Of a DNA stretch of 64,000 bases, positions 16,886 through 63,329 are shown one piece after another. How positions within the stretch are numbered: the first letter of the stretch is position 1; the number at the start of each line of letters is the position of its first letter. The stretch is from Squalus acanthias. Lineage: Eukaryota. Position numbers and translations under genes: made by a program. The stretch lies in NCBI GenBank assembly GCA_030390025.1, contig CM059432.1, positions 33,978,001 to 34,042,000 of the forward strand, in the 5' to 3' direction. Below the pieces are notes generated by a model. That model did not search any database. It was given only the letters and a program-made list of their open reading frames with translations, and was not told the origin of the DNA.

Positions 16886-19142
16886 GGCAGATTTTAACTC
16901 TGCCTGTCCGGTGGGAACAGGTCAAGTGGGTGGTTAAAATGGCGGTCGGGTGCTTCCCGTTGCATTCCCGACTCGTTCACGCCCACCACCTTTTTAACTG
17001 CGGGGATTTTTTTCCTCATTCGGGGCCACGTTCAAATGTTAAAGTCACGCTCCGATGGTGCCATCCAGACTCCGACGCGATTTTACTGGAATATGGCGGA
17101 AGGCCCATTTCCGGACCCACCAGTAAAACCTGATGGGATTGGTGCATCTCGGTGCCACAGAAGCTGTATATGGACAGGCACTCAGCTGCAGCTCATTGGA
17201 TCATAGGATCATTTTGCTCTGGTTTACCAGGAGAGTTTCCAGCTTCCAGTTCACTTCTCTCGCACTTTTATGGCCTCAGTAGGGTCAAGGAACATAGGAA
17301 CAGGAGGAGGTTCAGCCCCTTGAGATTATTCCACCATTTAATTAGATCATGATCTGTACCTCAACTACATTTACCCACCTTTGCTCCTTTTCCCCTGATA
17401 CATTTACCTAACAAAAATCTAACGAGCTCAGCCTAAAAAATTTCAATTGACCAAGCTTCCACGGTCTTTTGGGGAGAAAGTTCCAGATTTCCACTACCCT
17501 TGGTGTGAAAAAGTGTTTCCTGATTTCACTCCTGACTGGTTTAACTCTAATTTTGAGATTGTACCCCATTCCTCAGTAAGCTTTATCTGCTCATCATGGT
17601 GCTATTATCGCTAGTTTATTCTGGATGGACGGATACTTGGAGGTAGAGGAGTAACAGCAGCAGTCTCAGAAAACAGCAGCAGCTGTGCCTAACAGGCCAT
17701 GCCCAGCACACAGGGTGCTACTGGCCAAGAGTCACTTTCTTGGCCGTATCTGAGGAACAGTGCCTCAGGAGACTGTGTTTCTCCGGGCAGGCGGTTTCAG
17801 ACCTCGGCAGCCCCCTGCTCTAGGATCTGCTGTCGCTGAACCACGGGACCAGGCTTTGCCATTGGCTGCCAAAGTCACCACATCCCTTAACTCCTTCGCC
17901 ACTGGCTCCTTCCAGTCTGCGACAGGAACATCTCTCGCCTCTCCCAGTCTGCAGCACCTAGCCGCATTAAGCAGGTCACTGACACCCTGTTCACCAGGGC
18001 TGAGCAGTACATCACCCTCCCCATTGACTTTCATCGGTCAACACGAGAGAGCGCGGGGATTTGGCTGTCTTCCATTGCGTCCAGAGCATCATTGACTGCA
18101 CATGTTGCCATCAGAACACCTGCCAGCAATATTTGTCAATAGAAAAGAATACCACTCCATTTACACCCAGGTAGTGGATGATCACTCGAACAGCAAGGTA
18201 CCCAGACAGCTGTCACAACACTTTTTCTGCATCCGTCCACCATCCCCACAAAATGCAACTCTCTCAGGAACGTGGCTGGATGGTTGGGGGACAAGGCATA
18301 CCTCCTGCAGATGTGGCTCATGAGACGCCTCGCAACACCACTCCTGAGCAACAAAGATGTAATTGAAGCCAGGGGATCGTTTGGATGATTATTGAGCACA
18401 CCATAGGGTAAAGCAGAGGTTCAGCTATCTCGACAGGTCTGGGGTCTCCCTACAGTGTGCCCCACAAAGCGCCTTCTGCATTGTAGTGATGTGCTGCATA
18501 CTTGACGACTTCGCCCTGCAGAGAGGTCTGCATTTGGAGGAGGCACGGAAGCAGGTGAACTCCTCATCGGATGCAGAAGTCTAGGGAGAAGGTGAGGAAG
18601 CAGCAGGAGGAGGAGGGCCACCTCAGTGCCTTGCAGCAAGAGATGTGAGGTGCTGTTGGGAGAGATGGGGAGATGAAGAGCTCCACATAGCCTTTGCTAC
18701 TCTTCTGAGGTCATCAAACCTCTTTTTTGCATTGCACCCAGGTCCTGGGGCTGATGTTGGTGGCACTGACCCTTTCAAACACCTGCTTCATGGCATTGTG
18801 AATGCCTTTGCAGGTTTTGGGGAAAAGCTGCTCTCTCCTTGTCCTCACCTCCTCCACTAGGACCTGGGGGTGGGGTGGGGTGTGGTGGCCCTTCAACTTG
18901 TCTGTCTCCTGAAAATGTGTTCCACAGTTGTGCAATGTAAAATCCAAACAGAGGATGAAACCTCACTTTAAGAGGTGCATCCCTAAGTAGTAATCAGGAA
19001 TAGCGCTGGATATTGCACGCGAGATTTGGGTGGGCTGGCTGAATCACCATGCGATCGGGGTGGTGGGGGTGCAGTCTGTCAATTTTAATAAAAATGAGGC
19101 CAGGGCACTGCACCCCCCACCACCCCCAGGTTAAAATTGGGC
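16886..19142 (+). mobile_element. Old, heavily decayed two-gene Harbinger transposon (CR1 fragment inserted at ~17290-17570)
   Basis: + strand transposase remnants (KVTTSLNSFATGSFQSA; EYHSIYTQVVDDH); minus-strand Myb-like remnant (VEEVRTRREQLFP...PRTWVQCKK); possible TIRs ggcagattttaac / gttaaaattgggc. Confidence 0.7.
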
Positions 19143-20667: not shown

Positions 20668-22098
20668 GTGGTTTAAAGGCACGTTAACTAGGCCTCAGTT
20701 ATATAACCAAGTGAGTCTGATCACACAGTGTGGGAATGAGTGGCCAATTTTCTTTTCCATTCACTTCACATGTTCCTTCTCTAACCTCCACTGAAGAAAA
20801 CAAAAGCCTTGTCATGTTGTTATTATCTCAATAATCCTCAATCCCACATATTGATCCAGCTCCTTTTCAAAGTTGCCAATTGGCCCATGAACATAGCTAA
20901 AGTACAGGCCCAGACTGTGCAGCTGCCCACCGCAATCGCCTATTCCCTCCATCCTTCCTTGAATTTTTCCACACTACATGGCAAATGGAATATAATGTGG
21001 AGAAATGTGAAGTTATCCACTTTGGTACGAAAAATAGAAAAGCAGTGTATTTTTTAAATGGTGAGAGATTGGGAAATGTTGGTGTTCAGAGGGACCTGGA
21101 TAACCTTGTACACGAATCATTGAAAGTTAACATGCAGGTACAGCAAGCAATTAGGAAAGCAAATGGTATGTTGGCCTTTATTACAAGAGGATTTGAGTAT
21201 AAGTGTAAAGACGTCTTACTGTAATTATATAGGGCCCTGGTGAGACCACACCTGGAGTATTGTGTACAGTTTTGGTCTCCTTACCTAAGGAAGGATATAC
21301 TTGCCTTAGAGGGAGTGCAACGAAGGTTCACCAGACTGGTTCCTGGAATGGGGGGGATTGTCCAATGAGGAGAGATTGAGTAGACTAGGCCTATATTCTC
21401 TAGAGTTTAGAAGAATGAGAGGTGATCTCATTGAAACATACAAAATTCTTACAGGACTTGACAGGGTAGATGCAGGGAGGATGTTTCCCCTGGCTGGGGA
21501 GTCTAGAACCAGGGGTGATAGTCTCAGAATAAGGGGTCGGCCATTTAGGACTGAGATGAGGAGAAATTTCTTCACTCAGAGGGTGGTGAATCTTTGGAAT
21601 TCTCTACCCCAGAGGGCTGTGGAGGTTCAGTCACTGGGTATATTCAAGACAGGGATCGATAGATTTTTGAATATTAAGGGAATCAAGGGATATGGGGATA
21701 GTGCAGGAAAGTGGAGATGAGGTAGAAGATCAGCCATGATCTTAGTGAATGGCGGAGCAGGCTCGAAGGGCCGAATGGCCTACTCCTGCTCCTATTTCTT
21801 ATGTTATATCCTTATGTAATGTTCTACCTACCTCCACTACCTCACTGTGCACTCCCTTTAAATAATACTGTGTAAATCTCCCATCTTTAAAGCTTGAGGC
21901 TGTGAAACTTTCATTCCATTAGTGTGGGATAGATTCAAACCATCCAGCTGCCCAGCCTTCACACCTCATCTCCTACCCTTGCACAATGCTAGGAATGGGA
22001 GGGATGTATTAGCACCAGATAGTCACTCATTCCCACCCTGTGTGATCAGACTCACTTGGTTATATAATTGAGGCCTAGTTAATGTGCCTTCAAACCAC
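20668..22098. repeat. 77-bp inverted repeat pair (20668-20744 / 22022-22098) bracketing ~1.3 kb
   Basis: Reverse-complement comparison by eye shows 5 mismatches in 77 bp. Confidence 0.85.
20978..21820 (+). mobile_element. CR1 LINE 3' fragment
   Basis: MEYNVEKCEVIHFG, RDLDNLVHESLKV, LEFRRMRGDLIETYKIL plus 3'UTR. Confidence 0.9.
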
Positions 22099-27540: not shown

Positions 27541-30500
27541 CCCATCCCAAACACCAGCCCACACCTACCCCATTCCCAGTGGCTGGGTTTCTATTTAAAA
27601 ATCAAAACTTGAGTAAATTTTCAGAAACTGGGAGAGTAGACTCCAAAATAATACATACACTCAAAGTCTGATTTTTAAAGTAGGAACCCATTTTCCTTGT
27701 GGCGGTCTTAGATATTTATGCTACAGGGGCTGGAAGGAAGAGGGTCGGGTTTCAGTGAATGTTCTTAATCAGTAAAGCAAATATCAGAATGCAAGCTGTG
27801 ATCCCACTTCTGGCCCTGTGCTGTCCTTCCCCAGTCCATATTTATACTTGCCCAGAAAGAGCCTTCCCCATAAGTATTTATCATCATTAATGATAGCTCA
27901 GAGAAAACCTGACCCTTGAATACCCAGAGAACTTCCCCTTTAAGTGGTTTTCATCATTAACACTGACCCAAAGAGAAAACCTTCCCCTTTAAATATTCAT
28001 ACTGCCAAGAGACTCTGTCCCTTTAAATATTCATACTATCAGAGAGAACCTTCCTCTTTAAATATTCATACTGCCATAGAGAACCTTCTTTCAAGGTCTT
28101 TTCACTTTCATCAGCATTTACCTGATGTTTCCTTTTACTGTGCACTCAACATTTTGAGCCTTTGATCATTATAATTTTAGTGATGGATCGGTTACTTCAC
28201 AGGATTAGGAAATTTGCCTGCAAGTAATTTAGATGTGTGTGTTGGAGTAGAGGGGTGAGAATCATATTTAAAGGGACAGGTGGTTGGAACCTGAACAAGC
28301 ACAGGATGGAGTGCAGAATGAAACATTGTGGGCTTTTTTCATTTTCTTTGAACACTTTTGTTTATTAGTTATAAAAGTACTGGAGATGGACTGGGTGGGG
28401 CTGTTAGAGGAGAGAGGTCAAGTAATGGAACCTCCAAAAAGTAGGATCCAACCAGAGTTTGGCAACCCTACTTCAGACTAGGCATGGAGTGATTCAGACA
28501 AAGCGAGCAGACAAGATCCAGTGGTGCAGTCCCGTGGGTGCAATCCCTTTTTACATTACTACCTTCCCACCCTTTACACAAGGAACAGCACCATGGTATC
28601 ATGACAGCATTGGTCACTGGGGCTGCTGGCAACATAAGGACACAAGAGGCAACCACCTTGCGTGGGATTGGAGTCACGTGTAGGCCCAGACCAAGTAGGG
28701 ATAGGCAGTTACCTTCCCCAATGGACATTAATGAACCAATGGGTTTTTATGAGAATTCAGCAGCTTCCATGATCACGATTTACCAGATTTGTTGAATTTA
28801 ATTTCAAAGGCTTCAAGAAACGTAAGAATGGGAGTGGGCCAATCAACCCCTCGAGCCTGTCCCACCATTCAATTAGACCATGGATGATCTACATCTTAAC
28901 TCCAGTTAACCGTCTTTGATCCACATCCCTTGATATCCTTAACTAATAAAAAAGTCTATCGATCGCAGTCCTGAAAATTTCAATTGCCCCAGCATCCACA
29001 GCATTTTGGGAGAGTGCGTTTCAGATTTCCACTATCCTTTATGTGAAAACATGCTTCCTGATTTCACTCCTAAATGGCCTAGCTCGAATTTTAAGATTAT
29101 GCCCCCTTGTCCTGGATTCCTCCACCTGAGGAAATAGTTTCTCTGTATCTACCCCATCAAATCACTTTATCATTTTAAAGACCTCAATTAGATCACCCCT
29201 CAATTTTCTAAACTCAAGGAAATACAAACCAAGTTATACAACTCCTCATAATTAAACCCTTTAACCCCTGGTATCATTATGGGGAATCTGCACTATACCC
29301 ATTTCAAGGCCAGTATGTCTTTCCTGAGATACGGTGCCCAAACCTGAATACAGTACTCCAGATAGGGTTTAGCCAAGGCTCTGTACAGCTGATGCACTTC
29401 TTCCCCTTTGTATTCCAACTACCTTGAGATAAAGGCCAACATTCTGTTAGCATTTTTGATTATTTTTTACCCTTTAAGGCCTGGTATCATTGTGGTGAAT
29501 CTGTTCTGTATCCCCTGCAAGGCCATTATATCTTTCCTGAGGTTTGGTTTGCAAAACTGAACACGGGATTCCAAATGTAACCAAGGCTCTGTACAATTGA
29601 AGCTTCACATCCTCACTTTTGTATTCAAGCCCCCATAAGATAAAGGCCAACATTCCATTAGCCTTTTTGATTACTTCTTGTACCTGTGCACTAGCTTTTA
29701 GTGATTTATGTACATGGACACCTGAATCTCTTTGCTCCTCCACAGTTCCGAATCCCTCACCATCAAGAAAATATTCAGATGACACAAAACTTGGAAGTAT
29801 AGTGAACAGTGAGAAGGATAGTGATAGACTTCAAGAGGACATAGACAGGCTGGTGGAATTGGGCGGACACGTGGCAGATAAAATTTAACGCAGTAAAGTA
29901 TGAAGTGATACATTTTGGTAGGAAGAACGGGGAGAGGCAATATAAACTAAAGGGTACAATCCTAAAGGAGGTGCATGAACAGAAAGACCTGGGGATGTAT
30001 GTGCACAAATCGTTGAAGGTGGCAGGGCAGGTTGAGAAAGCAGTTAAAAAAGCATACGGGATCCTGGGCTTCATAAATAGAGGCACAGGGTACAAAAGCA
30101 AGGAAGTTATGATGAGCCTTTATAAAACACTGGTCCGACCTCAACTGGAGTATTGTGCCCAATTCTGGGCACTGCACTTTAGGAAGGATGTGAAGGCCTT
30201 AGTGAGGGTGCAGAAAAGATTTACAAGATGAGGGACTTCAGTTACGTGGATAGACTAGAGAAGCTGAGGTTGTTCTCCTTAGAGCAGAGAAGGTTGAGAG
30301 GAGATTTGATAGAGGTATTCAAAATCATGGGGGGTCTAGACAGAGTAGATAGAGAGAAACTGTTCCCATTGGCGGAAGGGTCGAGAACCAGAGGACACAG
30401 ATTTAAGGTGATTGGCAGAAGAACGAAAGGCGGCATGAGGAAAACCTTTTTTACGCAGCGAGTGGTTAGAATCTGGAATGCACTGTCTGAGCGGGTGGTG

Positions 30501-31200
30501 GAGGCAGATTCAATCGTGGCTTTCAAAAGGGAACTGGATAAGTACCTGAAGGAAAAAATTTGCAGGGCTACGGGGAAAGGGCGGGAGAGTGGGACTAGCT
30601 GAAGTGCTCTTGCAGAGAGCCGGCATGGGCTAGATGGGCCGAATGGCCTCTTTCTGTGCTGTAATCATTCTCAGAGTCATAGGGCTAAAAATTCAGTTGG
30701 TTGCGCCTCCCGTTAGCGCCTTAAGAGGGCGCTAATGGGGCGCAAAGCAGCTAGCGCCCAGGCGCAGCGATGTTTGCGCCGCTCGCGAACTTAACTAGAC
30801 ATTTTGCGGCGGTGCTAAACTTTATCGCCGCGATCTCCTGCGCGCGCAGATTGTGACGTCATATGAGAGTGCAACGCCCTTGTGGCGCCCCGGAGCAGAA
30901 TTTCAGTGGCGCCCCCATCCTTACCGCCTGGCGCATCCAATGACCGGTAGAGTGGAACGCTAACAATCGCTGTGGGGCTGGGGGGGGCGCTATTTAAAGA
31001 TTTAAAGGGGGCCTCTTCCTGTCTTTCTCTGTGGTTGACATTTTTGCACCACTCGTTCTGAGAGAGAGAGAGAGATTCGGAGAGAGAGAAAGAGAGACTT
31101 GTGCATTGAGTCAACGCTGTGTAAGGTAGTTTTGGCTACTGATCCTAACTTCGCTGGTACTTTGGTTTCTGGCCTTCATAACTTTGCTTGCTAAGAGACT

Positions 31201-32229
31201 ATGGGGGCTGCACTGATGGGGGGCGTCGTCCTGCGCCAGCTGAATCGGAGGAGACAGAGACGCAGAGAGAGAGTGGCAATGATGGCCAGACGGAGGAGGG
31301 CCAACAGGCGTCTGTACAGGAGAGCTTACCCTCCCAGGGTATATCGTGGCCAGCTCTCCTACATTCATATGTCTGATGAGCAGTGTCTGCGAAGGCTGCG
31401 CTTCAGCAAGGAGGTGGTCACTGAGCTCTGCCACCTGCTGCAGCCAGATCTGCTGCCTCAACTGAGGTCCAGGACGTCTCTGTCGGTGGCAGTGAAGGTC
31501 ACAGTGGCTCTGAACTTTTATGCTACTGGCTCATTTCAATCTGCTGTTGGGGACATCGCCAATCTCTCCCAGTTCGCGGTGCATTGCTGCATCCGGCAGG
31601 TCACAAATGCCCTCTTTAAAAGGAGACGAGAGTTCATCTCTTTCCCCATGACCCCAGACAAGCAGCAAGAACGCGCTCTGGGCTTTGCGAGGATAGCGGG
31701 CTTCCCCATGGTGCAGGGCGCCATTGACTGCACGCATGTGGCTTTGCGTGCTCCGCATGAGAATGCCAAGGATTTCCGGAACAGAAAGGGGTTCCATTCC
31801 TTGAATGTTCAGTTGGTCTGTGACCACAGACAGCTGATACTCGCTGTTAATGCCCACTATCCTGGCAGCTGCCACGATGCATTCATCCTGCACCAGACTA
31901 CTGTGGCAGAACTTTGAGGCACCGCATCAGCCAGTTGGTTGGCTTCTCGGGGACAAGGGGTATCCACTGAGCACCTGGCTGATGACACCGCTCCGTACGC
32001 CCAACACCCCTGCTGAGCTGCGGTACAACGAGAGCCATCAAGCTACCAGGAACATCGTTGAGCACACAATCGGCGTGCTCAAGCAACGGTTCCGCTGTCT
32101 GGACCATTCTGGAGGAGCCCTGCAGTACTCGCCTGAGCGAGTTTCCAACCTCGTAGTTGTGTGCTGCATGCTGCATAACATGGCAATCCTCAGGACCCAG
32201 CCAATGCCACCAGGCCTTGGAGCACCACC

Positions 32230-32260
<31 letters not shown>

Positions 32261-32359
32261 GAGGAGGATGATCAGCAGCAGCACCAAGGCGTGAGGGCGG
32301 CCCACAATGGTGAAACTGCAAGGGCCGTCCGTCAGCGGCTGATAGCAAGCCGCTTCTAG
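31201..32359 (+). pseudogene. Harbinger (HARBI1-like) DDE transposase with one frameshift near 31912
   Basis: [43 protein letters not shown], then in another frame [34 protein letters not shown] and an acidic tail. Confidence 0.92.
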
Positions 32360-32670
32360 GCCCCTGCTGTGGAAATGGCTTCTGCCATTGAGAACAGCAT
32401 GAATGAACCCAACACGCAACCCCTAAGCCGGCCAAGGCACCAATGATTCCAAACACCAAACATGTATATTTTGAGTACGAAAACTTATTTATTTTACAAA
32501 CTCTGTGTGTGTCATTTCTTCATGACAAACTCATACAAATAAACACAAAAAAACAGTCATTACCATAACTGGTTCTCACAACCTGGAGATCATGTGCAAA
32601 ACACTCAACAAAAGTTTGACCACGAACCTCGGCCTTTAATAAAAAAATAACCAGCATTTTGTCACACCTC

Positions 32671-34461
32671 CTACATCGAGGGTGAACTCCTTCCCGTGCG
32701 CCCTTCCCCCCTTCTTACCCCACTGCTCCTCCGTAATGGGACCTCAGTGGCTGCAGCAAGGCTGGTGGAAGGCTGCTGACTGTCAGGCCCTGACAATGCA
32801 GATGCCCTTGAGGGACGGCCTCGACCAGTTCTGGGCCTGGATGGCCCGGCTGCAGACTGCACCAACTCTGCACGGGCGGCAGCAGTCTGTCCTACAAGCG
32901 GTGGCAACTGCAGTGGAGAAGTGACAGTGGTGGCAGCAGGAATGCTGTCATCTTGAGCGAGGACAGGAACTCCCTGCTCGACCGGCACACTGGCACTCCC
33001 ACGGGGCAGCACCTCAGCATCCGGAGCAATCTGCTGGAGCACAGATTGCTGGCCTGCTGCGGCGCGGTGAGAGCCCTGGGGAAATGTGTTCGAACCAGCG
33101 AGGATGGCAGCAGACAGTGCTCGCGTGGCCTCAATCTGAGTCTGCATGAGAGCAGTCTGAGATTGAATTGCAGCACTGAGCTTCAGTGTCGCATCCGCCT
33201 GCGCTGCAGCGAAGTGCTCCACACTCCTTGCCAGTGCTTCAATGCATTCGGGCACCCTACCCACTGCAGCCATGAGCTCAGTGTGCATGCCCACCGCCTG
33301 GGTGTTCATTTCCGCGATCAGCCGCTCCTCCTCTGCGTCCAGTGCAGCAGGACTCGCTGGCCTACTCTCCCTCCGGGGAGAAGGCCCCCGTTCTTCCCTA
33401 CCCCCATGGCGTTGCTGCAGCCCGCTGGGTCCTGGAGCTTCACCCTCATCAGACCCTTCCCCCCTGCTCCCCTCCAGGGAAGGCGTGTCCTCAGTGTCGG
33501 CATGGGCTTCCTCGGGAGAGGGTGGCTCTGATGCTCCGGCTTCCTCTTCCTCCTCGGCTGCAGCCTCACTCCCACTGGCAGCTTCAGGGCCCGTCTCCTC
33601 AGCTGGTGAATCACCATCTGAAAGCAGGGAGGTACAAGAGTGGCTTTAGCGTGAGGACAGGGTGGCAGTAAGGGAGGAATAAGTGCAGCGAGTTAGTAAG
33701 TTGGATTGAAAGTGTCAAAGGCTGGTGTTGTGAGGGACAAGTGGAAGGACAGAGGACAAAAAGGTGATGACCTTACGATTGCTGTCCAGAACGGGGTCGG
33801 CGTCTCCAGTGGCGACGGGACCGATCACCCGGCTTGCCACAATCCTGTGGACGCGCTCCTCAAGATCGCTGAGGGGTTGCAGCTGAGGCCGCCCTCCACC
33901 CGTCCGTTGCTGCTGTCTCCTATTATGCGCCAGCTTGGCCTGCAAGAAAAAGGACGGCGTCTGAGTAAATATACAGCCATGGTCTTGCCTGATGTGCCTC
34001 CCATAGGTGAATAGCCCTTACTGTACTACAGCCATGGTCTTGCCTGATGTGCCTCCCATAGGTGAATAGCCCTTACTGTATGCAAAGTGTGGAATGTGTG
34101 TGTGTGCTTCATGAAAGGGCCATAGGTGTTGGATGAGTGCTGTTAGTTGTGGTTTTAAGACCCTCTGGCCATAGAGTGAGGTTGAGATGGAGGGATGGAG
34201 AGGTATTGCAAAAAAGCCACTCACCCTGACGACCCGAGTGAGGTCGTTGAACTTTTTCCGGCATTGGACATGGGTCCTGGGCACCATGCTCCTGGAGGAG
34301 ACGTGCTGAGCCACCTCCCTCCACACTCTTCTGTAGTCGCGCGGCAAAGGCCTCCTGCCACTCTCTGGGTACAGTATTGATCCTCGGCGCTCCACCGCGC
34401 CAACCAGAGCATCTAAGGCCCGCTCGCTGAAGCGCTGAGCTCGTTCTCTCGCCCTCTCCAT
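32671..34461 (-). CDS. Harbinger Myb/SANT-like DNA-binding protein, 3 exons (34461-34225, 33939-33777, 33617-32671), 448 aa
   Basis: Exon 1 RFSERALDALV...WREVA...RTHVQCRKKFNDL; donors GTGAGT and GTAAGG, acceptors ttcttgcAG and ctttcAG; 237+163+947=1347 nt, open to the stop at 32671; exon 2 has the TGGG motif. Confidence 0.85.
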
Positions 34462-34898
34462 CCTTGGCTGGAAAATGGAATCTCAGGTCTCTCCAGGTCG
34501 AGATTCAAGGCTGCAATGAGCAGGGTGTGGCTGGGGAGCAAGATCGCCCCCCCCCCTTTAAGAACTGGCCGGCGCCAGTGTGTCTGTGTTCCCTCGCTAA
34601 CTGGCAGCACCTGCGCTGCGCTCGCGCTCTGAGTTAGCGCCTCACTCCTCGGCCTTTGCGCCTTAAGACAGGTGTGCAGCACCTGATTTAGCGATCCAAT
34701 CACCTCCCGGGGCGTTAAAACTCAAGTTTCCAGTCAGTGGCGATAATTAGCGCCAGGCGCTAATCTTTGCGCCCGGCCGATAATTGCGCCCCAAATGGGG
34801 CGATACTGAATTTTTCCCCCATAGAGTTATACAGCACAGCAAGAGGCCGTTCGGCCCATCGTGTCCGCGCCGGCCATCAAGCCCTGTCTATTCTAATC

Positions 34899-37800
34899 TC
34901 ATTTTCCAGCACTTGGTCTGTTGCCTTGTATGCTATGGCGTTTCAACTGCTCATCTAAATGCTTCTTGAATGCTGTGAGGGTTCCTGCCTCTACCACCCT
35001 TTCAGGCAGTGAGTTCCAGATTCCAACCACCCTCTGGGTGAAAAAGTTTTTCCTCAAATCCCTGCAAAACCTCCTGCCCCTTACCTTGAAACTATGCCCC
35101 CTGGTTATTGACCCCTCTACTAAGGGGAAAAGTTCCTTTCTATCTACCCTATCTATGCCCCTCATAATTTTGTACACCTCAATCAGGTGCCCCCTCAGCC
35201 TTCTCTGCTCTAAGGAAAACAACCCCAGCCTGTCCAGTCTCTCTTCATAGCTGAAGCGCTGCAGCCCAGGTAACATCCTGGTGAATCTCCTCTGCACCCT
35301 CTCCAATGCAATCACATCCTTCTGATAGTGTGGCGACCAGAACTGCACACAGTATTCCAGCTGTGGACTAACTAGCGTTTTGTACAGCTTCATCATAACC
35401 TCCCTGCTCTTATATTCTATGCCTCGGCTAATGAAGGCAGGTATCCCATATGCCTTTTTAACCACATTATCTACCTGTCCTGCTGCCTTCAGGGATCAAT
35501 GTACATGCACACCAAGGCCCCTCTGATCCTCTGTCCTTCCTAGGGTCCTACCATTCATTGTGTATTCCCTTGCCTTGTTAGTCCTCCCAAAATGCATCAC
35601 CTCACACTTTTCAGGGTTAAATTCCATTTGCCGCTGTTCTGCCATTCTGACCAACCCATCTATATCGTCCTGTAGCCTGAGGCTTCCCTCCTCGCTAATT
35701 ACCACCCCACCAATTTTTGTGTCATCTGCGAACTTACTGATCATACCTCCTACATTCATATCTAAATCATTAATGTACACTACAAACAGCAAAGGACCCA
35801 GCACCGATCCCTGTGGTACACCACTGGACACAGGCTTCCAGTCACAAAAACAACCTTCGACCATCACCCTCTGCCTCCTGCCACTAAGCCAATTTTGGAT
35901 CCAATGTGCCAAATTGCCCTGGATCCCATGGGCTCTTACCTTCTTGACCAGTCTCCCATGCGGGACTTTGTCGAAAGCCTTACTGAAGTCCATATCAACT
36001 GCACTACCCTCATCCACACACCTAGTCACCCCCTCGAAAAATTCAATCAAATTGGTTAGACATGATCTCTCCCTGACAACGCTATGCTGACTATCCTTGA
36101 TTAATCCTTGCCTCTCCAAGTGGAGACTAATTCTGTCCCTCAGAATTTTTTCCAATAATTTCCCTACCACTGATGTTAGGCTCACTGGCCTGTAATTCCC
36201 TGGGCTATCCCTACTCCCCTTCTTGAATAATGGTACTACGTTAGCTGTTCTCCAGTCCTCTGGCACCTCCCCTGTGGCCAGAGAGGTTCTGAAAAATTGT
36301 GTCAGAGCCCCTGCAATCTCCTCCCTTGCCTCACACAGCAGCCTGGGATACATCTCGATAGCAAAATACTGCGGATGCTGGAAATCTGAAATAACAACAG
36401 AAAACGCTGGAAAAACTCAGCAGGCCAGGCAGCATCCGTGGAGAGAGAAAGAGAGTTAACGTTTCAGGTCGATGACGAAAGGTCATCGACCTGAAACGTT
36501 AACTCTCTTTCTCTCTCCACGGATGCTGCCTGGCCTGCTGAGTTTTTCCAGCGTTTTCTGTTGTTATTTCTGGGATACATCTCGTCTGGGCCTGGGGATT
36601 TATCCACTTTTAAGCCCGCTAAAACCGTTAGTACCTCCTCCCTCTCAATACTAATTTGTTCAAGTATATCACAATTCCCCTGTCTGATTTCTATGCCTAC
36701 ATCGTCCTTCTCCATAGTGAACACAGATGCAAAATATTAATTTAAAACCTCACCTACATCTTTCGGCTCTACACACAGATTGCCACTTTGGTCCCTAATG
36801 GGCCCTACTCTTTCCCTGGTTATCCTCTTGCCCTTAATATACTTATAAAACACCTTGGGATTTTCCTTTATTTTGCCCGCCAGTGTTTTTTCATGCCCCC
36901 TCTTTGCTCTCGTAATTTCTTTTTTAAGTACCCCCCTGCACTTTCTATACTCCTCTAGGGCTTCCACTGTTTTTACTCCTTTGTATCTGCCAAAAGCCTC
37001 CCTTTTTTTCCTAATCCATTCTCGTATATCCCTTGACATCCAGGATTCCCTGGGCTTGTTGTTCCCACCCTTGACCTTTACGGGAACATGTTGGCATTGT
37101 ACTCTCTCTATTTCCTTTCTGAAAGACTCCCACTGCTCTGATGTGGATTTTCCTACAAGTAGCTGATCCCAGTCCACTTTGGCCAGATCCTGCCTTATCA
37201 TATTAAAATCGGCCTTCCCCCAATTTAGAACCTTTATTTCCAGTCCATCTTTGTCCTTTTCCATGACTACCTTAAATCTCACCGAATTATGGTCACTGTC
37301 ACCAAAATGCTCTCCTACTAACACTTCTACCACTTGCCCAGCTACATTCCCTAGAATTAGGTCCAGTACCGCCCCCTCTCTTGTAGAACTTTCTACATGC
37401 TGGCTCAAAAAGCTCTCCTGGATGCACTTTAAGAATTCCGCACCCTCTAAGCCTTTCACACTCTGACTATCCCAGTTAATATTGGGGAAGTTGAAATCCC
37501 CTACTATTATTACCCTATTATTTCTACACTTCTCTCAGATTTGCCTACATATCTGTTCTTCTATCTCCCTCTGACTGTTTGGGAGCCTATAGTACACTCC
37601 CAGCAAAGTGCTTGCCCCCTTTTTGTTTTTAAGTTCTACCCATATGGCCTCATTAGAGGAACCTGCTAAGATATCATCCCTCCTTACTGCAGTAATTGAC
37701 TCCTTGATTAATATTGCGACACTCCCTCCTCTTTTACACCCCCCTCTGTCTCGCTTGAAGATTCTATACCCCAGAATATTGAGTTGCCAGTCCTGCCCCT

Positions 37801-39044: not shown

Positions 39045-39937
39045 GGGGGAAAAATTCAGTATCGCCCCATTTGGTGCGCAATTATCGGCCGGGCGCAAAG
39101 ATTAGCGCCTGGCGCTAATTATCGCCACCGACTGCAAACTTGACTTTTATCGCCCCTGGAGGTGATTGCAGTGCTAAATCAGGCGCTTCACACCTGTCTT
39201 AAGGCACAAAGGCCGAGGAGCGAGGCGCTACCTCAGAGCACTGGCGAAGCTCATGTAATGTCAGTCAGCAATGGAACACACACACAATGGCACGGGCCAG
39301 TTCTTAAAGGGGATGGTTAATCTTGCTTTCCATCCACATCCTGCTCATTGCAGCCTTGAATCTCGGCCTGGAGAGACCTGCACATCAAATCTGCTGGAAA
39401 GAACAATGGAGAGTACCAGGCAAAGAGCTCAGAGTGCAGCCCCCACAGTCTCTTCTAAATCGATACAAGGAATGGCAAATCAAAATGAACCTGCAAAGTG
39501 CTGCTCAGTACCCAAAACTCCTTCACACAACGTTGAATCTCTCCAGAAGTCTCTCCCTCTCTCTCTCAGAATGCGTAGTTCAAAAATGGCACCAACAATA
39601 AAAAGCAGGAAGCGGTCACCTTTAAATAGCGCTCCCCCTTTCCCTTCATGACTGCAGAACGCTCCCCTCAACCTGTCGTTGCTAGCGTCAGGCGGTAAGG
39701 CAGGGGGTGCCACTCAATATCTGCTCCGGGGCGATACCGGGGCGTTGTGCACTCGACTGACATCACGATCTGCCGGTGTAGGAGATCGTGGCGGTAGTGT
39801 TTAGCACCGCCGCAAAATGTCTAGTTAATTTCGCGAGCGGCGCAAACTTCGCCGCGCCTGGGTGCCAGATGCTTTGCGCCCCATTAGCGCCCTCTTAAGG
39901 CGCTAACGGGAGGCACAACCAACTGAATTTTTCCCCC
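39045..39937 (-). mobile_element. Non-autonomous derivative (893 bp) of the 30682-34820 Harbinger family
   Basis: TIRs GGGGGAAAAATTCAGT / ACTGAATTTTTCCCCC; both subterminal regions homologous to the autonomous element; flanks CTA / (C)TAA. Confidence 0.92.
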
Positions 39938-45878: not shown

Positions 45879-47615
45879 GGGGGAAAAATTCAGTTGGTTT
45901 GCACCTCCCATTAGCGCCTTAAGAGAGCACTAATGGGGCGCAAAGCAACTAGCGCCCGTGCGCGGCGATGTTTGCGCCGCTCACGAAATTAACTAGACAT
46001 TTTGCAGCGGAGCTAAACACTACCGCCAGGATCTCCTGCGCCGGTAGATTGTGACGTCAGTCGAGTGCGCAACGCCCCGGTAGCGCCCCGGACCGGATAT
46101 TGAGTGGCGCCCCCTGCCTTACCGCCTGCCGCTAGCAACGACAGGTTGAGGGGAGCGTTTTGCAGTCAGGAAGGGACTGGGGGAGTGCTATTTAAAGGCG
46201 ACCACTTCCTGCCTTTTTTTGTTGGTGACATTTTTGCACCACGCATTCTGAGAGAGGGAGAGAGAGGGGGAAAATTCAGTATCGCCCCGTTTGGGGCGCA
46301 ATTATCGGCTGTGCGCAAAGTTTAGCGCCTGGCGCTAATTATCGCCTCTGACCGCAAACTAGGCTTTTATCGCCCCTGGAGGTGATTGGAGCGCTAAATC
46401 AGGCGCTTCAAAACTGTCTTAAGGCGCAAAGGCCGACGAGCGAGGTCAGTCAGCAATGGAACACAGACACAATGGCGCAAGCCAGTTCTTAAAGGGGAGG
46501 GTTGATCTTGCTCTCCATCCACATCCTGCTCATTGCAGCCTTGAATCTCAGCCTGGAGAGACCTGTACATCAAATCTGCTGGAAAGAACAATGGAGAGAA
46601 CCAGGGAAAGAGCTCAGAGTGCAGCCCCCACAGTCTCTTCTAAATAGATGCAAGGACGGCCAAATCAAAATGAACCTGCAAAGTGCTGCTCAGTACCCAA
46701 AACTCCTTCACACAGCGTTGAATCTCTCCAGAAGTCTCTCTCTCTCTCTCAGAATGCGTGGTGCAAAAATGTCACCAACAAAAAAAGGCAGGAAGCGTTC
46801 GCCTTTAAAAGCGCTCCCCCAGTCCCTTCCTGACTGCAAAACGCTCCCTTCAACCTGTCATTGCTAGCGGCAGGCAGTAAGGCAGGGGACTCCACTCAAT
46901 ATCCGCTCCGGGGCGCTACCGGGGCGTTGCGCACTCGACTGACGTCATGATCTGCCGGCGCAGGAGATCGTGGCGGTAGTGTTTAGCCTGGTCAATTTCA
47001 CGAAAGGCGCAGATATCGCCGCGCCAGGCGCTAGTTGCTTTGCGCCCCATTAACGCCCTCTTAATGCGCTATCGGAAGGCGCAAACCAACTGAATTTTTC
47101 CCCCAGAGACTTCTGGAGAAATTCAACACTGTGTGAAGGAGTTTTGGGTACTGAGCAGCACTTTGCAGGTTCATTTTGATTTCCCCTTCCTTGTATCGAT
47201 TTAGAAGAGACTGTGGGGGCTGCACTCTGTGCTCTTTCCCTGGTACTCTCCATTGTTCTTTCCAGCAGATTTGATGTACAGGTCTCTCCAAGGCCGAGAT
47301 TCACGGCTGCAATGAGCAGGATGTGGATGGAGAGCAAGATCAACCCTCCCCTTTAAGAACTGGCCGGCGCCATTGTGTCTGTGTTCCATTGCTGACTGAC
47401 ATCACATGAGCTTCGCCAGCGCTCTGAGGTAGCGCCTCGCTCCTCAGCCTTTGCGCCTTAAGACAGTTGTGAAGCGCCTGATTTAGTGCTCCAATCACCT
47501 CCAGGGGCGATAAAAGCCAAGTTTGCAGTCGGAGGCGATAATTAGCGCCAGGCGCTAATCTTTGCGCCCAGCCGATAATTGTGCCCCAAATGGGGCGATA
47601 CTGAATTTCTCCCCC
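45879..47615 (+). mobile_element. Non-autonomous Harbinger derivative (~895 bp) carrying a nested copy
   Basis: TIRs GGGGGAAAAATTCAGT / ACTGAATTTCTCCCCC; TSD TAT. Confidence 0.92.
46266..47104 (-). mobile_element. Non-autonomous Harbinger derivative (839 bp) nested in opposite orientation
   Basis: TIRs GGGGGAAAATTCAGT / ACTGAATTTTTCCCCC; TSD AGA (46263-46265, 47105-47107). Confidence 0.92.
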
Positions 47616-59900: not shown

Positions 59901-61115
59901 TGCATTTTGAAGGAGAAAGACTTGAGTGGAAAAATACGATTGGCCCTGAAAATGGGTACGGGGATCACGATGCACGATTGACCCGCTTCGTGCTGCCTGC
60001 TAATTTTCATGATTGCCGCATGCAACCAGCGCTAAACGCGCTGTTGAGTGAATTCACACCTCAGCAGGGGGCCCAAGTTTGTGCGAGGCTAGCACCACTT
60101 AAAGCTAGCCTGCACTACTTAAAGCCAGTCTGCATCTCTTCAAGGGGAGGTGCATTCTGACTGTAGCAGGTGACAGATTTCAATGAGGACGTCCTTCGTG
60201 AAGCGCCGACGTCTGACACACTGTTTCTCACTGAGGTTCAGGTAATAGTATTGCTCCCTGAGCACCCTGGCCGGATATGGCCTTCTGCTGAGAGCCCTTC
60301 TCCCCCTTCCTCTTCCAGCAGCTTGTCCTGCTCTGTGTCACCTCTGCTCATTCTCCCTGTCATGCTGTAGGCCAAGGGGAATGCCTACTGCTGCACCCAT
60401 GTCTGGAAGCAAGTGGTCTGTGCAGCAGCATTGAAGTCAGGACAAAGTTCTTCAGCACTTGCCACACCACTCCCTGTAGACTTTAGCAACTTTAAAGAAC
60501 TCTAAAAACCACAAAACACTTCTACAAACACAGCAACAACCAGTAGAAATCAATCAGCAACTAATCTGTAAATAGATGATGATCCCTTTAAATAGCACTG
60601 CTAGGAGGGGGGGTCCTTCATGCTGCTGAACGCGTGTTCAGCTGTACGTATTTTAAGAGAGGGCGTTAGTTGAAGCATTGAGCTCCAAAATGGCAGTGCT
60701 GGCGTCAAATCAGCATTACACGTTGATTGACATCATGATCTGCCTACTCTGCATACTTCCGGCTGATGCTCACTGTGTCCGTACTAACGCCCTCACCAAG
60801 ATGGCATCCAATGCGACTCATATTAGAAGTGTGCAGTGCGCAGCGGATGCCATTTTGGATTCATAACAGCACTTGTAGCGCCGAAACAGCAAGTGCTAAG
60901 AACCCGAATTTCAAAAATGTCCTAAAACTCCTTCACATACAATGAATTACTTTGAATTTCCATCTAGTTCGCCTTCTACCATCCTGGTAGTCACATGATA
61001 CAACGATAATGGAGTTGTTGACTAATCATAGCAATCAACCTCTATCAATTAATCTACAACAGACCCAGACATGAGGTGAGGAAAACCACCAGTGATGGAG
61101 AGCATTGGGAACCAT

Positions 61116-62103: not shown

Positions 62104-62307
62104 CATAAGTCCAAAGTCACCTGATCCTCCCAAGCATTCTACACTTACCACATATCATGTCTCAAATTACTTATTTACAGTATCGCAAAATGTTATTTAC
62201 TGAAAGAAATCAATCTAATTTTCATTTTAATGAATCAATACTAACTGCTTCCATCGTCTCCCTAGGGAGCCTGTCCCATAGATTGACCACTCGCTCACTG
62301 AAATATT

Positions 62308-63153
62308 GGGGGTGATTTTGCCAATGGGGAGCTTTTGGAGGCAGGACTCCCACTTGTCGGGTTTCAGTCCCGCCTCCATCAACCTCTGGCCAACCCAGGC
62401 TATTTTCCCTTGATTGACCTTGTTAAGTCCGCCCAGCGGGCTTAGCAGGCCAATTAAGGGAAAGCCGGTTACAGAGAACGTCAACGTATGACGTTTCATC
62501 TATCAAAAATTTTTGACAGCTGAATTGTCATCGTTTGACAGCTCTGTGAAGCTGTCAAACACTGACATTCTCTGTAGTTTGATGAGTTCTTGTACTCAAG
62601 ACCTCATCAAACCTCTTTCTTTTGCAGAAATGAGGTGGTTGTTGCATTGGACAATGTAACAGCCATCTGTCATCTCTACCACGGAGGTGCGAGACTCTCC
62701 GCATACACACTGATTGAAGTCTGCAGGAAGAAACAAAGGTAAGTACACTTTTTCTAACATTTTGTACTTACCTCAGATACTCACCTCTCCACACTTGCAC
62801 CCATCACTTACCTTCACAGCGCATTTTTGGACCCCTCCGACCCCCGCAGACCCACTGCTCGCCTCGGTGAACCTGGTGGGTTTCGGAGCCTTCGGGAAGC
62901 CCGCACTTCAGGGCTCAAAATGGGGATAATCCTATTTTCTGCCTGTTAACTACCTGTTAACAGGCAGTTCAGTGGATGTAATCCCTTCCCGCCTCCAAGG
63001 AGACGGGACCCGGCGCGGGATGGCTACCCACCTCCTGGCAAGATGGCATGGAGGCAGGTTGGGGACAGGTTGGGCACCCGCCCCCAAATTCTGCCATTTT
63101 CCCGGTAGTCCCGCCTCCAAACCCGCCTCCCCAGGGCTGGCAAAATCACCCCC
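62308..63153 (+). mobile_element. 846-bp Harbinger-type MITE (family B)
   Basis: Perfect 16-bp TIR GGGGGTGATTTTGCCA / TGGCAAAATCACCCCC; TSD ATT. Confidence 0.92.
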
Positions 63154-63329
63154 ATTGTTTCCACAGATTAGTTTTAAATTTACCCCCTTGGAACACAGAC
63201 ATTATTTAGTCCCTTTAGAATGCTAAACTTACCATATCCAAACAAGCAGTCATTTGGAAAGGAGTATAACCAGCAACAACCAGTTAATCTGTTTTTTTAT
63301 GGGTTGATGTTGGTTCAGGTAGGAATATT

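Follow-up and report, generated by a model that had tools for sequence, protein, structure and literature searches.

The closest described relatives of the element reported here are two-gene transposons of the Harbinger type. In zebrafish, the reconstructed Harbinger3_DR and Harbinger3N_DR combine a gene for a DDE transposase and one for a Myb-like protein with non-autonomous derivatives and a 3-bp target duplication (PMC2836001, PMC3016246, PMC9392472), while rice Ping/Pong and the miniature inverted-repeat transposable element (MITE) mPing comprise a two-gene autonomous element together with short derivatives that arose by deletion and keep the same ends; they also have an extended target preference (PMC2836001). 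A 2026 preprint has active PIF/Harbinger elements of a nematode as its subject. NuwaI and NuwaII encode DDE_Tnp_4 and Myb/SANT open reading frames (ORFs) within ~4–5 kb and have short terminal inverted repeats (TIRs) beginning GG or GGG (Han et al. 2015, PMC4482050). Sharks are stated to be without PHIS elements by Han et al. (PMC4482050), and PMC9179366 reports no Harbingers in the elephant shark and suggests testing other cartilaginous fishes; PIF-Harbinger is listed for the whale shark and the grey reef shark (PMC8455134, PMC12498223). We analysed a 64,000-nucleotide stretch of Squalus acanthias (GCA_030390025.1, contig CM059432.1, positions 33,978,001–34,042,000; hereafter the window), in which positions 30682–34820 hold a full-length, two-gene Harbinger-type element of 4,139 bp. 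Very probably it belongs to a two-component, high-copy DNA transposon family of the Harbinger type (PHIS superfamily) in an elasmobranch, of which it is a non-autonomous copy. A search of full-text literature, to which subscription papers largely did not belong and which did not cover Dfam/Repbase or the supplementary repeat tables of shark papers, found no family-level description in elasmobranchs.

The element ends in 16-bp TIRs (30682–30697, plus strand, and 34805–34820) with 14 of 16 bases in common, and it is bordered on both sides by ATA (30679–30681 and 34821–34823, plus strand), so that the TIRs and ATA target-site duplication (TSD) claimed in an earlier note on this stretch, the original prediction, are borne out. 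The two mismatches, at positions 4–5 of the left TIR, set that repeat apart from the right TIR and from the ends of three MITEs in the window. The terminal 16-mer, with up to two mismatches allowed, occurs eight times in the window against an expected 0.10, a number reached in 0 of 100 shuffles, and all eight occurrences are ends of the long element or of the three MITEs. Inside the TIRs lie subterminal regions rich in GCGCC/GGCGC, with 12 occurrences in 279 nt on the left (30682–30960; 43 per kb) and eight GCGCC-type occurrences in 261 nt on the right (34560–34820, including the right TIR; 31 per kb), whereas the window's first 30 kb contain 0.4 per kb; these regions are candidate Myb-binding sites. 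The observed/expected ratio of CpG is 1.14 and 0.99 at the two ends and 0.41 outside.

The transposase gene (31201–32359, plus strand; PF13359) is intronless, with ~386 codons between an ATG at 31201 and a stop at 32359, and contains one frame change, a 2-bp deletion at ~31913–31915, in agreement with the single frameshift predicted at ~31912. Both halves match PF13359 above cut-off (E 5e-14 and 8e-22), and the four motifs named in the original prediction (GAIDCTH, GSCHD, GDKGY and VEHTIG) are all found in this copy. The four catalytic positions (D177, D227, D252 and E288 in the numbering of P0038) are retained when the break is read through with X; the 33 aligned homologues have D at the first three in 27, 24 and 27 cases and E at the last in 17. 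Copies without the frameshift, for which the original prediction had proposed a search, exist: contigs of all four public sequencing runs that were aligned (X3, X6, X7 and X15) carry two extra bases behind 31915, with summed depths of 25,541 of 152,893 in X3 and 3,980 of 6,960, 5,221 of 5,371 and 169 of 177 in the other three. The spacer pattern is matched by 15 of the 33 homologues, 14 of which have 17 residues there, as the loss of 2 bp in this copy predicts. A 1-bp insertion was considered as the lesion and ruled out by the homologue spacer length together with the extra bases in other copies. Because the deletion lies after the second catalytic aspartate and ahead of the third, the product would stop at ~240 aa, lacking the last D and the E, and the copy could therefore not move itself. 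Against solved structures, the transposase gave no match at E 0.01.

Convergent with the transposase is a Myb/SANT gene on the minus strand, whose three exons (34225–34461, 33777–33939 and 32671–33617, the last including the stop codon) join into 448 aa without internal stops. Exon 1 matches PF13873 above cut-off (E 5e-9), and the introns (33940–34224, 285 nt, and 33618–33776, 159 nt) are both GT-AG, as in the convergent three-exon gene with an open 448-aa frame that had been proposed. Of its two predicted junctions, 33777/33617 is used in X15, a probable RNA run: three contigs skip 159 nt, listed as 33618 to 33778, a joint displaced by one place because the window letter at 33777 departs from the family. 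Junction 34225/33939 is supported by homology, no joint for it being among the rows listed. Its position is spanned in alignment by 58 of the 69 Myb homologues, 47 of them free of gaps, whereas in an unspliced-reading control residue 95 was passed by 2 of 74 matches. The homologues cover aa 2–437; all 69 came from an exhaustive search, a word-index search having returned none among 334 candidates. Within intron 1 lies a 54-nt tandem duplication (33972–34080) with identical copies. Its unit boundary, one base shorter, is crossed by contigs in all four runs, and the duplication therefore seems to be a family trait.

Beyond this locus, parts of the 4.4-kb stretch occur in 20 of 24 listed public runs and at least half of its words in eight, with a best word share of 0.73. 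Contig alignment was carried out for four of the 24, which derive from organisms coded A, B and C; the word shares of the other 20 (X1, X2, X4, X5, X8–X14 and X16–X24) were not taken to indicate range or habitat. Aligned contigs numbered 62,714 in X3, 13,126 in X6, 12,351 in X7 and 1,388 in X15, and each run had depth in all 30 bins, which shows the family to be high-copy; alignment depth does not equal copy number, and no copy number was derived from it. In each of organisms A, B and C the element is present over its full length at 92% or more, as short pieces, and no single contig in the four runs spans it.

The window itself contains the three MITEs with the same ends, which the original prediction had not recorded. 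M1 (39045–39937, minus strand) has 893 bp and the imperfect duplication CTA/TAA, M2 (45879–47615, plus strand) has 895 bp without its insert and a TAT duplication, and M3 (46266–47104, minus strand; 839 bp, AGA duplication) sits nested within M2, in its GA microsatellite. In each MITE the opening codons of a transposase gene are joined to the opening codons of a Myb gene, and they are therefore internal deletions. They resemble the long element at 79–81% in their 5' parts and 88–89% in their 3' parts and one another at 88–94%, and because they are closer to one another than to the long element they must derive from a sister subfamily. The equivalent GA microsatellite of the long element lies in the 5' leader (31060–31097, plus strand). 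Two X3 contigs connect this microsatellite to a 5' end, a hint of repeated self-insertion at that place.

Comparison of the insertion sites relates the family to the known systems in one respect and separates it in another. Three of the four TSDs are perfect (ATA for the long element, TAT for M2 and AGA for M3), the length of AGA being ambiguous because it sits in a microsatellite; the site of M1 was scored with its left duplication taken as one base short. A loosely palindromic motif, A-N-N-Y[3 bp]R-N-N-T, is present at 13 of 16 positions over the four sites (P 3e-4) and at 10 of 12 without M1 (P 1e-3). The target flanks of Harbinger3_DR, printed as AAACAC...GTCTTT (PMC3016246), agree with the four sites at 31 of 48 positions, against a null mean of 13.7 (0 of 500,000 draws); when M1 is left out, the figure is 23 of 36 (P 4e-6). 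Over these four sites, the flanks are thus shared with zebrafish Harbinger3_DR while the centre is not CWG: CWG, the duplication that defines NuwaI, occurs at none of the four. The C and G flanks of the NuwaII target C|TNA|G are present at three of the four sites, its TNA at no more than one, if M1 is read as TAA (PMC4482050).

Taken by description, the family shares its two genes, non-autonomous derivatives and 3-bp duplication with Harbinger3_DR and Harbinger3N_DR, but has ATA, TAT, AGA or TA(A) rather than CWG at the centre and an elasmobranch host. It resembles NuwaI and NuwaII in its ORFs, short TIRs and length, and differs in its duplicated triplets from NuwaI and, unless M1 is read as TAA, from NuwaII, and it resembles Ping/Pong and mPing in its two-gene organization, end-sharing deletion derivatives and extended target, but not in the plant host, the TTA/TAA duplications or the proven activity of the rice elements (PMC2836001). 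DDE_Tnp_4, a Myb/SANT ORF, short TIRs starting GGG, a 3-bp TSD and an extended palindromic target are all found here; the TWA duplication of the narrow PIF/Harbinger group of Han et al. (2015) is not represented by ATA, TAT or AGA, M1 at most fitting it. On these characters we would place the copy in PHIS/Harbinger in the broad sense, outside the narrow TWA-type PIF/Harbinger subgroup.

Description of this copy as one indel from a complete system was overstated. Forty of 130 variant places were listed, and 39 were used after removal of one site in the flank; at 14 of the 39, the window letter differs from at least 85% of the depth in X3, X6 and X7 alike. At a 70% threshold, nine coding letters alter eight codons (three in the transposase, five in the Myb protein) and three are silent, so that at least eight codons differ from nearly all aligned copies, in addition to the two left-TIR mismatches. 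One altered transposase codon specifies L, which none of the 33 homologues has at that place (I in 18, F in 11, M in 3 and V in 1). Neither the left-TIR mismatches nor the further family differences in the two proteins had been observed in the original prediction. Among the 14 near-fixed differences, four are of the CpG-decay type, and the pattern of the coding differences looks like neutral decay. Divergence ranges from 0.34% (14 of 4,139, listed sites) to 1.8–2.5% when polymorphisms are counted as well (80–109 of 4,381 places). At the mutation rate of the epaulette shark, 7e-10 per generation with an interval of 1.4–14.1e-10 (PMC10587355), 0.34% corresponds very roughly to 5 million generations, a figure that CpG decay would shorten. 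The copy is thus young, as predicted, by percent identity but, given the slow mutation rate of sharks, not necessarily in years.

The same differences can be read in another way, in line with the original prediction of a young and possibly active family, namely as the markers of a subfamily that is specific to the host, arose very recently and is still being amplified, with the frameshift as the only lesion. Organisms do differ in subfamily: at 34258, 32716 and 34209 the other letter makes up 0.93, 0.92 and 0.94 of the X3 depth against 0–0.13 in X6 and X7, being 0 in organisms B and C at 34258 and 0.01–0.02 at 32716, and CpG has been kept at both ends of the element. Organism A is dominated by a subfamily that is absent or rare in B and C, which suggests that amplification continued in at least one lineage. 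The window copy, however, agrees with B and C at all three markers and therefore stands outside the burst of organism A, four of its 14 near-fixed differences are CpG-type decay, and nine of its 12 coding differences alter an amino acid. We regard a still-amplifying host-specific subfamily as unlikely, though not to be neglected.

Several observations count against a decayed, non-autonomous copy of a widespread family or against parts of its anatomy. The ratio of nonsynonymous to synonymous changes is 9:3 for this copy and 10:9 for the subfamily differences, which is not a significant difference (P 0.27). The aligned runs may stem from species other than the host of the window, and changes that look private could therefore mark a host-specific subfamily. 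In X3, just 25,541 of the 152,893 summed depth at 31915 carries the extra bases, and the remainder may be contigs ending there or copies with the same deletion. With respect to splicing, X15 is taken as an RNA run by guess only, no intron 1 joint stands among the rows listed, 14 more being unlisted, and one X15 contig (34147–34365) crosses the donor of intron 1 unspliced.

Sharing of the family among organisms could reflect horizontal transfer between elasmobranchs, which would be compatible with our preferred reading of the locus as a non-autonomous family copy. The element is complete at 92% or more, in short pieces, in all three organisms, and Harbinger transfer is reported in fish (PMC9179366) and sea kraits (PMC8437027). 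The organisms are identified by code only, and slow shark evolution (PMC10587355) together with words pooled over thousands of copies suffices for high shares; transfer is accordingly an improbable explanation of the sharing.

It is more improbable still, at a level we consider low, that the frameshift is an assembly error and the locus an intact autonomous element. The transposase frame is open in other copies, the catalytic residues are all present and the Myb gene can be read through 448 aa without a break, as expected of such an element. Yet the missing bases are not a pure shortening of a homopolymer, and this copy departs from its family elsewhere too, for example in the L absent from 33 homologues and in the two left-TIR mismatches.

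The homologues of the two proteins bear on a last alternative. Named top matches of the transposase are all from sharks and rays, the best having 67% identity over 90% of the length (P0039, Pristiophorus japonicus), and the best Myb match has 40% over 493 columns (P0149, Pristiophorus japonicus). These HARBI1- and Myb-labelled ORFs of Pristiophorus japonicus, Heptranchias perlo and other elasmobranchs are similar proteins, but none belongs to the same family at the protein level, and their names are gene-model labels rather than described transposon families. All close transposase homologues carry the database name 'putative nuclease HARBI1', and conserved transposase-like genes are present in elasmobranchs, yet a domesticated HARBI1/NAIF1-like pair is scarcely credible at a locus that has TIRs and a duplication, is accompanied by MITEs, occurs in high copy number and carries a frameshift, in place of the single copy, absence of TIRs and intact frame of a domesticated gene. 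The multi-copy data already refute such a pair, short of this locus alone being syntenic and intact in other species. A quick tree of database hits only groups the protein with Pristiophorus copies on long branches and not within the cross-species clades, whose branches are short.

Those short-branched clades of Harbinger-transposase-like proteins (P0075/P0084, P0055/P0056/P0102, P0069/P0076, P0047/P0048, P0042/P0043 and P0002–P0005/P0045/P0050) are shared by sharks, skates and rays that are only distantly related. A 90% cluster among them comprises 25 members, 15 of them listed, from at least 10 named species; other clades are 69–90% identical, with catalytic aspartates replaced in some. Judged from their sequences, the clades look like elasmobranch-specific domesticated genes mislabelled HARBI1, and they are possibly more interesting than the element itself. 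The domesticated Harbinger-derived genes named in PMC9392472 are only HARBI1, NAIF1 and MSANTD1–4, and a literature search on domesticated Harbinger-like genes of elasmobranchs turned up nothing. A Harbinger-type Myb protein of ~410 aa, the P0154 cluster, forms a 90% cluster across four ray species and is a candidate domesticated partner gene.

Other features of the element and its surroundings complete the picture. A TATA-like box (30991–30999, plus strand; a presumed function), shared with the MITEs, lies 200 nt 5' of the transposase ATG. Candidate poly(A) signals AATAAA lie at 32538–32543 (plus strand, with a second at 32638) for the transposase gene and at 32488–32493 (minus strand) for the Myb gene, and the 3' untranslated regions of the two genes would overlap. 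Insertion was into the 3' tail of a minus-strand long interspersed nuclear element (LINE), which contains the right TSD and which we take to be CR1-like from its ORF motifs, adjoining a plus-strand LINE. The two LINEs (29845–30678 and 34824–36416) are arranged tail to tail around the insertion, and other X3 contigs join LINE tails likewise. Single X3 contigs with joints that skip approximately the element (30656–34831, 30661–34820 and 30662–34823) were not counted as insertion polymorphism; they may be other tail-to-tail LINE junctions because their sides are 21–25 letters long and the intervening letters are unlike this locus. The idea that the target is linked to LINE-tail repeats had one site only to go on and was dropped. 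Elsewhere in the window there are older, degraded relics of transposases from other Harbinger families at 17700–18570 (plus strand; ~26–32% identity over ~260 aa) and 60155–60280 (minus strand; a piece of 30–42 aa, 42–67%). Segments bounded by inverted repeats at 20668–22098 (75 nt, 95%) and 62300–63161 (24 nt, 92%) may be other non-autonomous elements.

The anatomy, the duplications, the multi-copy spread, the nesting and one splice are shown by the sequence data, while the manner of movement is drawn by analogy with Harbinger3_DR and Ping/Pong (PMC2836001, PMC9392472). On that analogy, the spliced Myb/SANT protein would bind the element ends and carry the DDE transposase into the nucleus and onto the TIRs, and the transposase would excise the element and insert it at a loosely palindromic 15-bp target, of which the central 3 bp are duplicated. 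The sequences show the spread of the family and its sister subfamily in this manner, the MITEs left behind with the same ends, and insertion into copies of their own. This copy lost 2 bp in the transposase gene and then accumulated more changes; it could still supply Myb protein or, should its left end be tolerated, be moved in trans. It is conceivable, though we are doubtful, that transposition of the family continues today in a living shark or ray and that natural copies exist with both genes and both ends undamaged.

As a member of a Harbinger family in a shark, the element contradicts the 2015 statement that sharks lack the superfamily (PMC4482050) and provides one family towards the tests in further cartilaginous fishes called for in PMC9179366. 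Its combination of conserved target flanks with an altered centre bears on how two-protein systems choose their sites. The copy described here is ill suited as the basis of a transposon tool. If intact copies prove to be active, they would constitute a vertebrate Harbinger that needs no reconstruction, natively active on a 15-bp target of the Harbinger3_DR type whose centre is relaxed and A/T-edged, and found in a lineage from which the superfamily was at one time reported absent.

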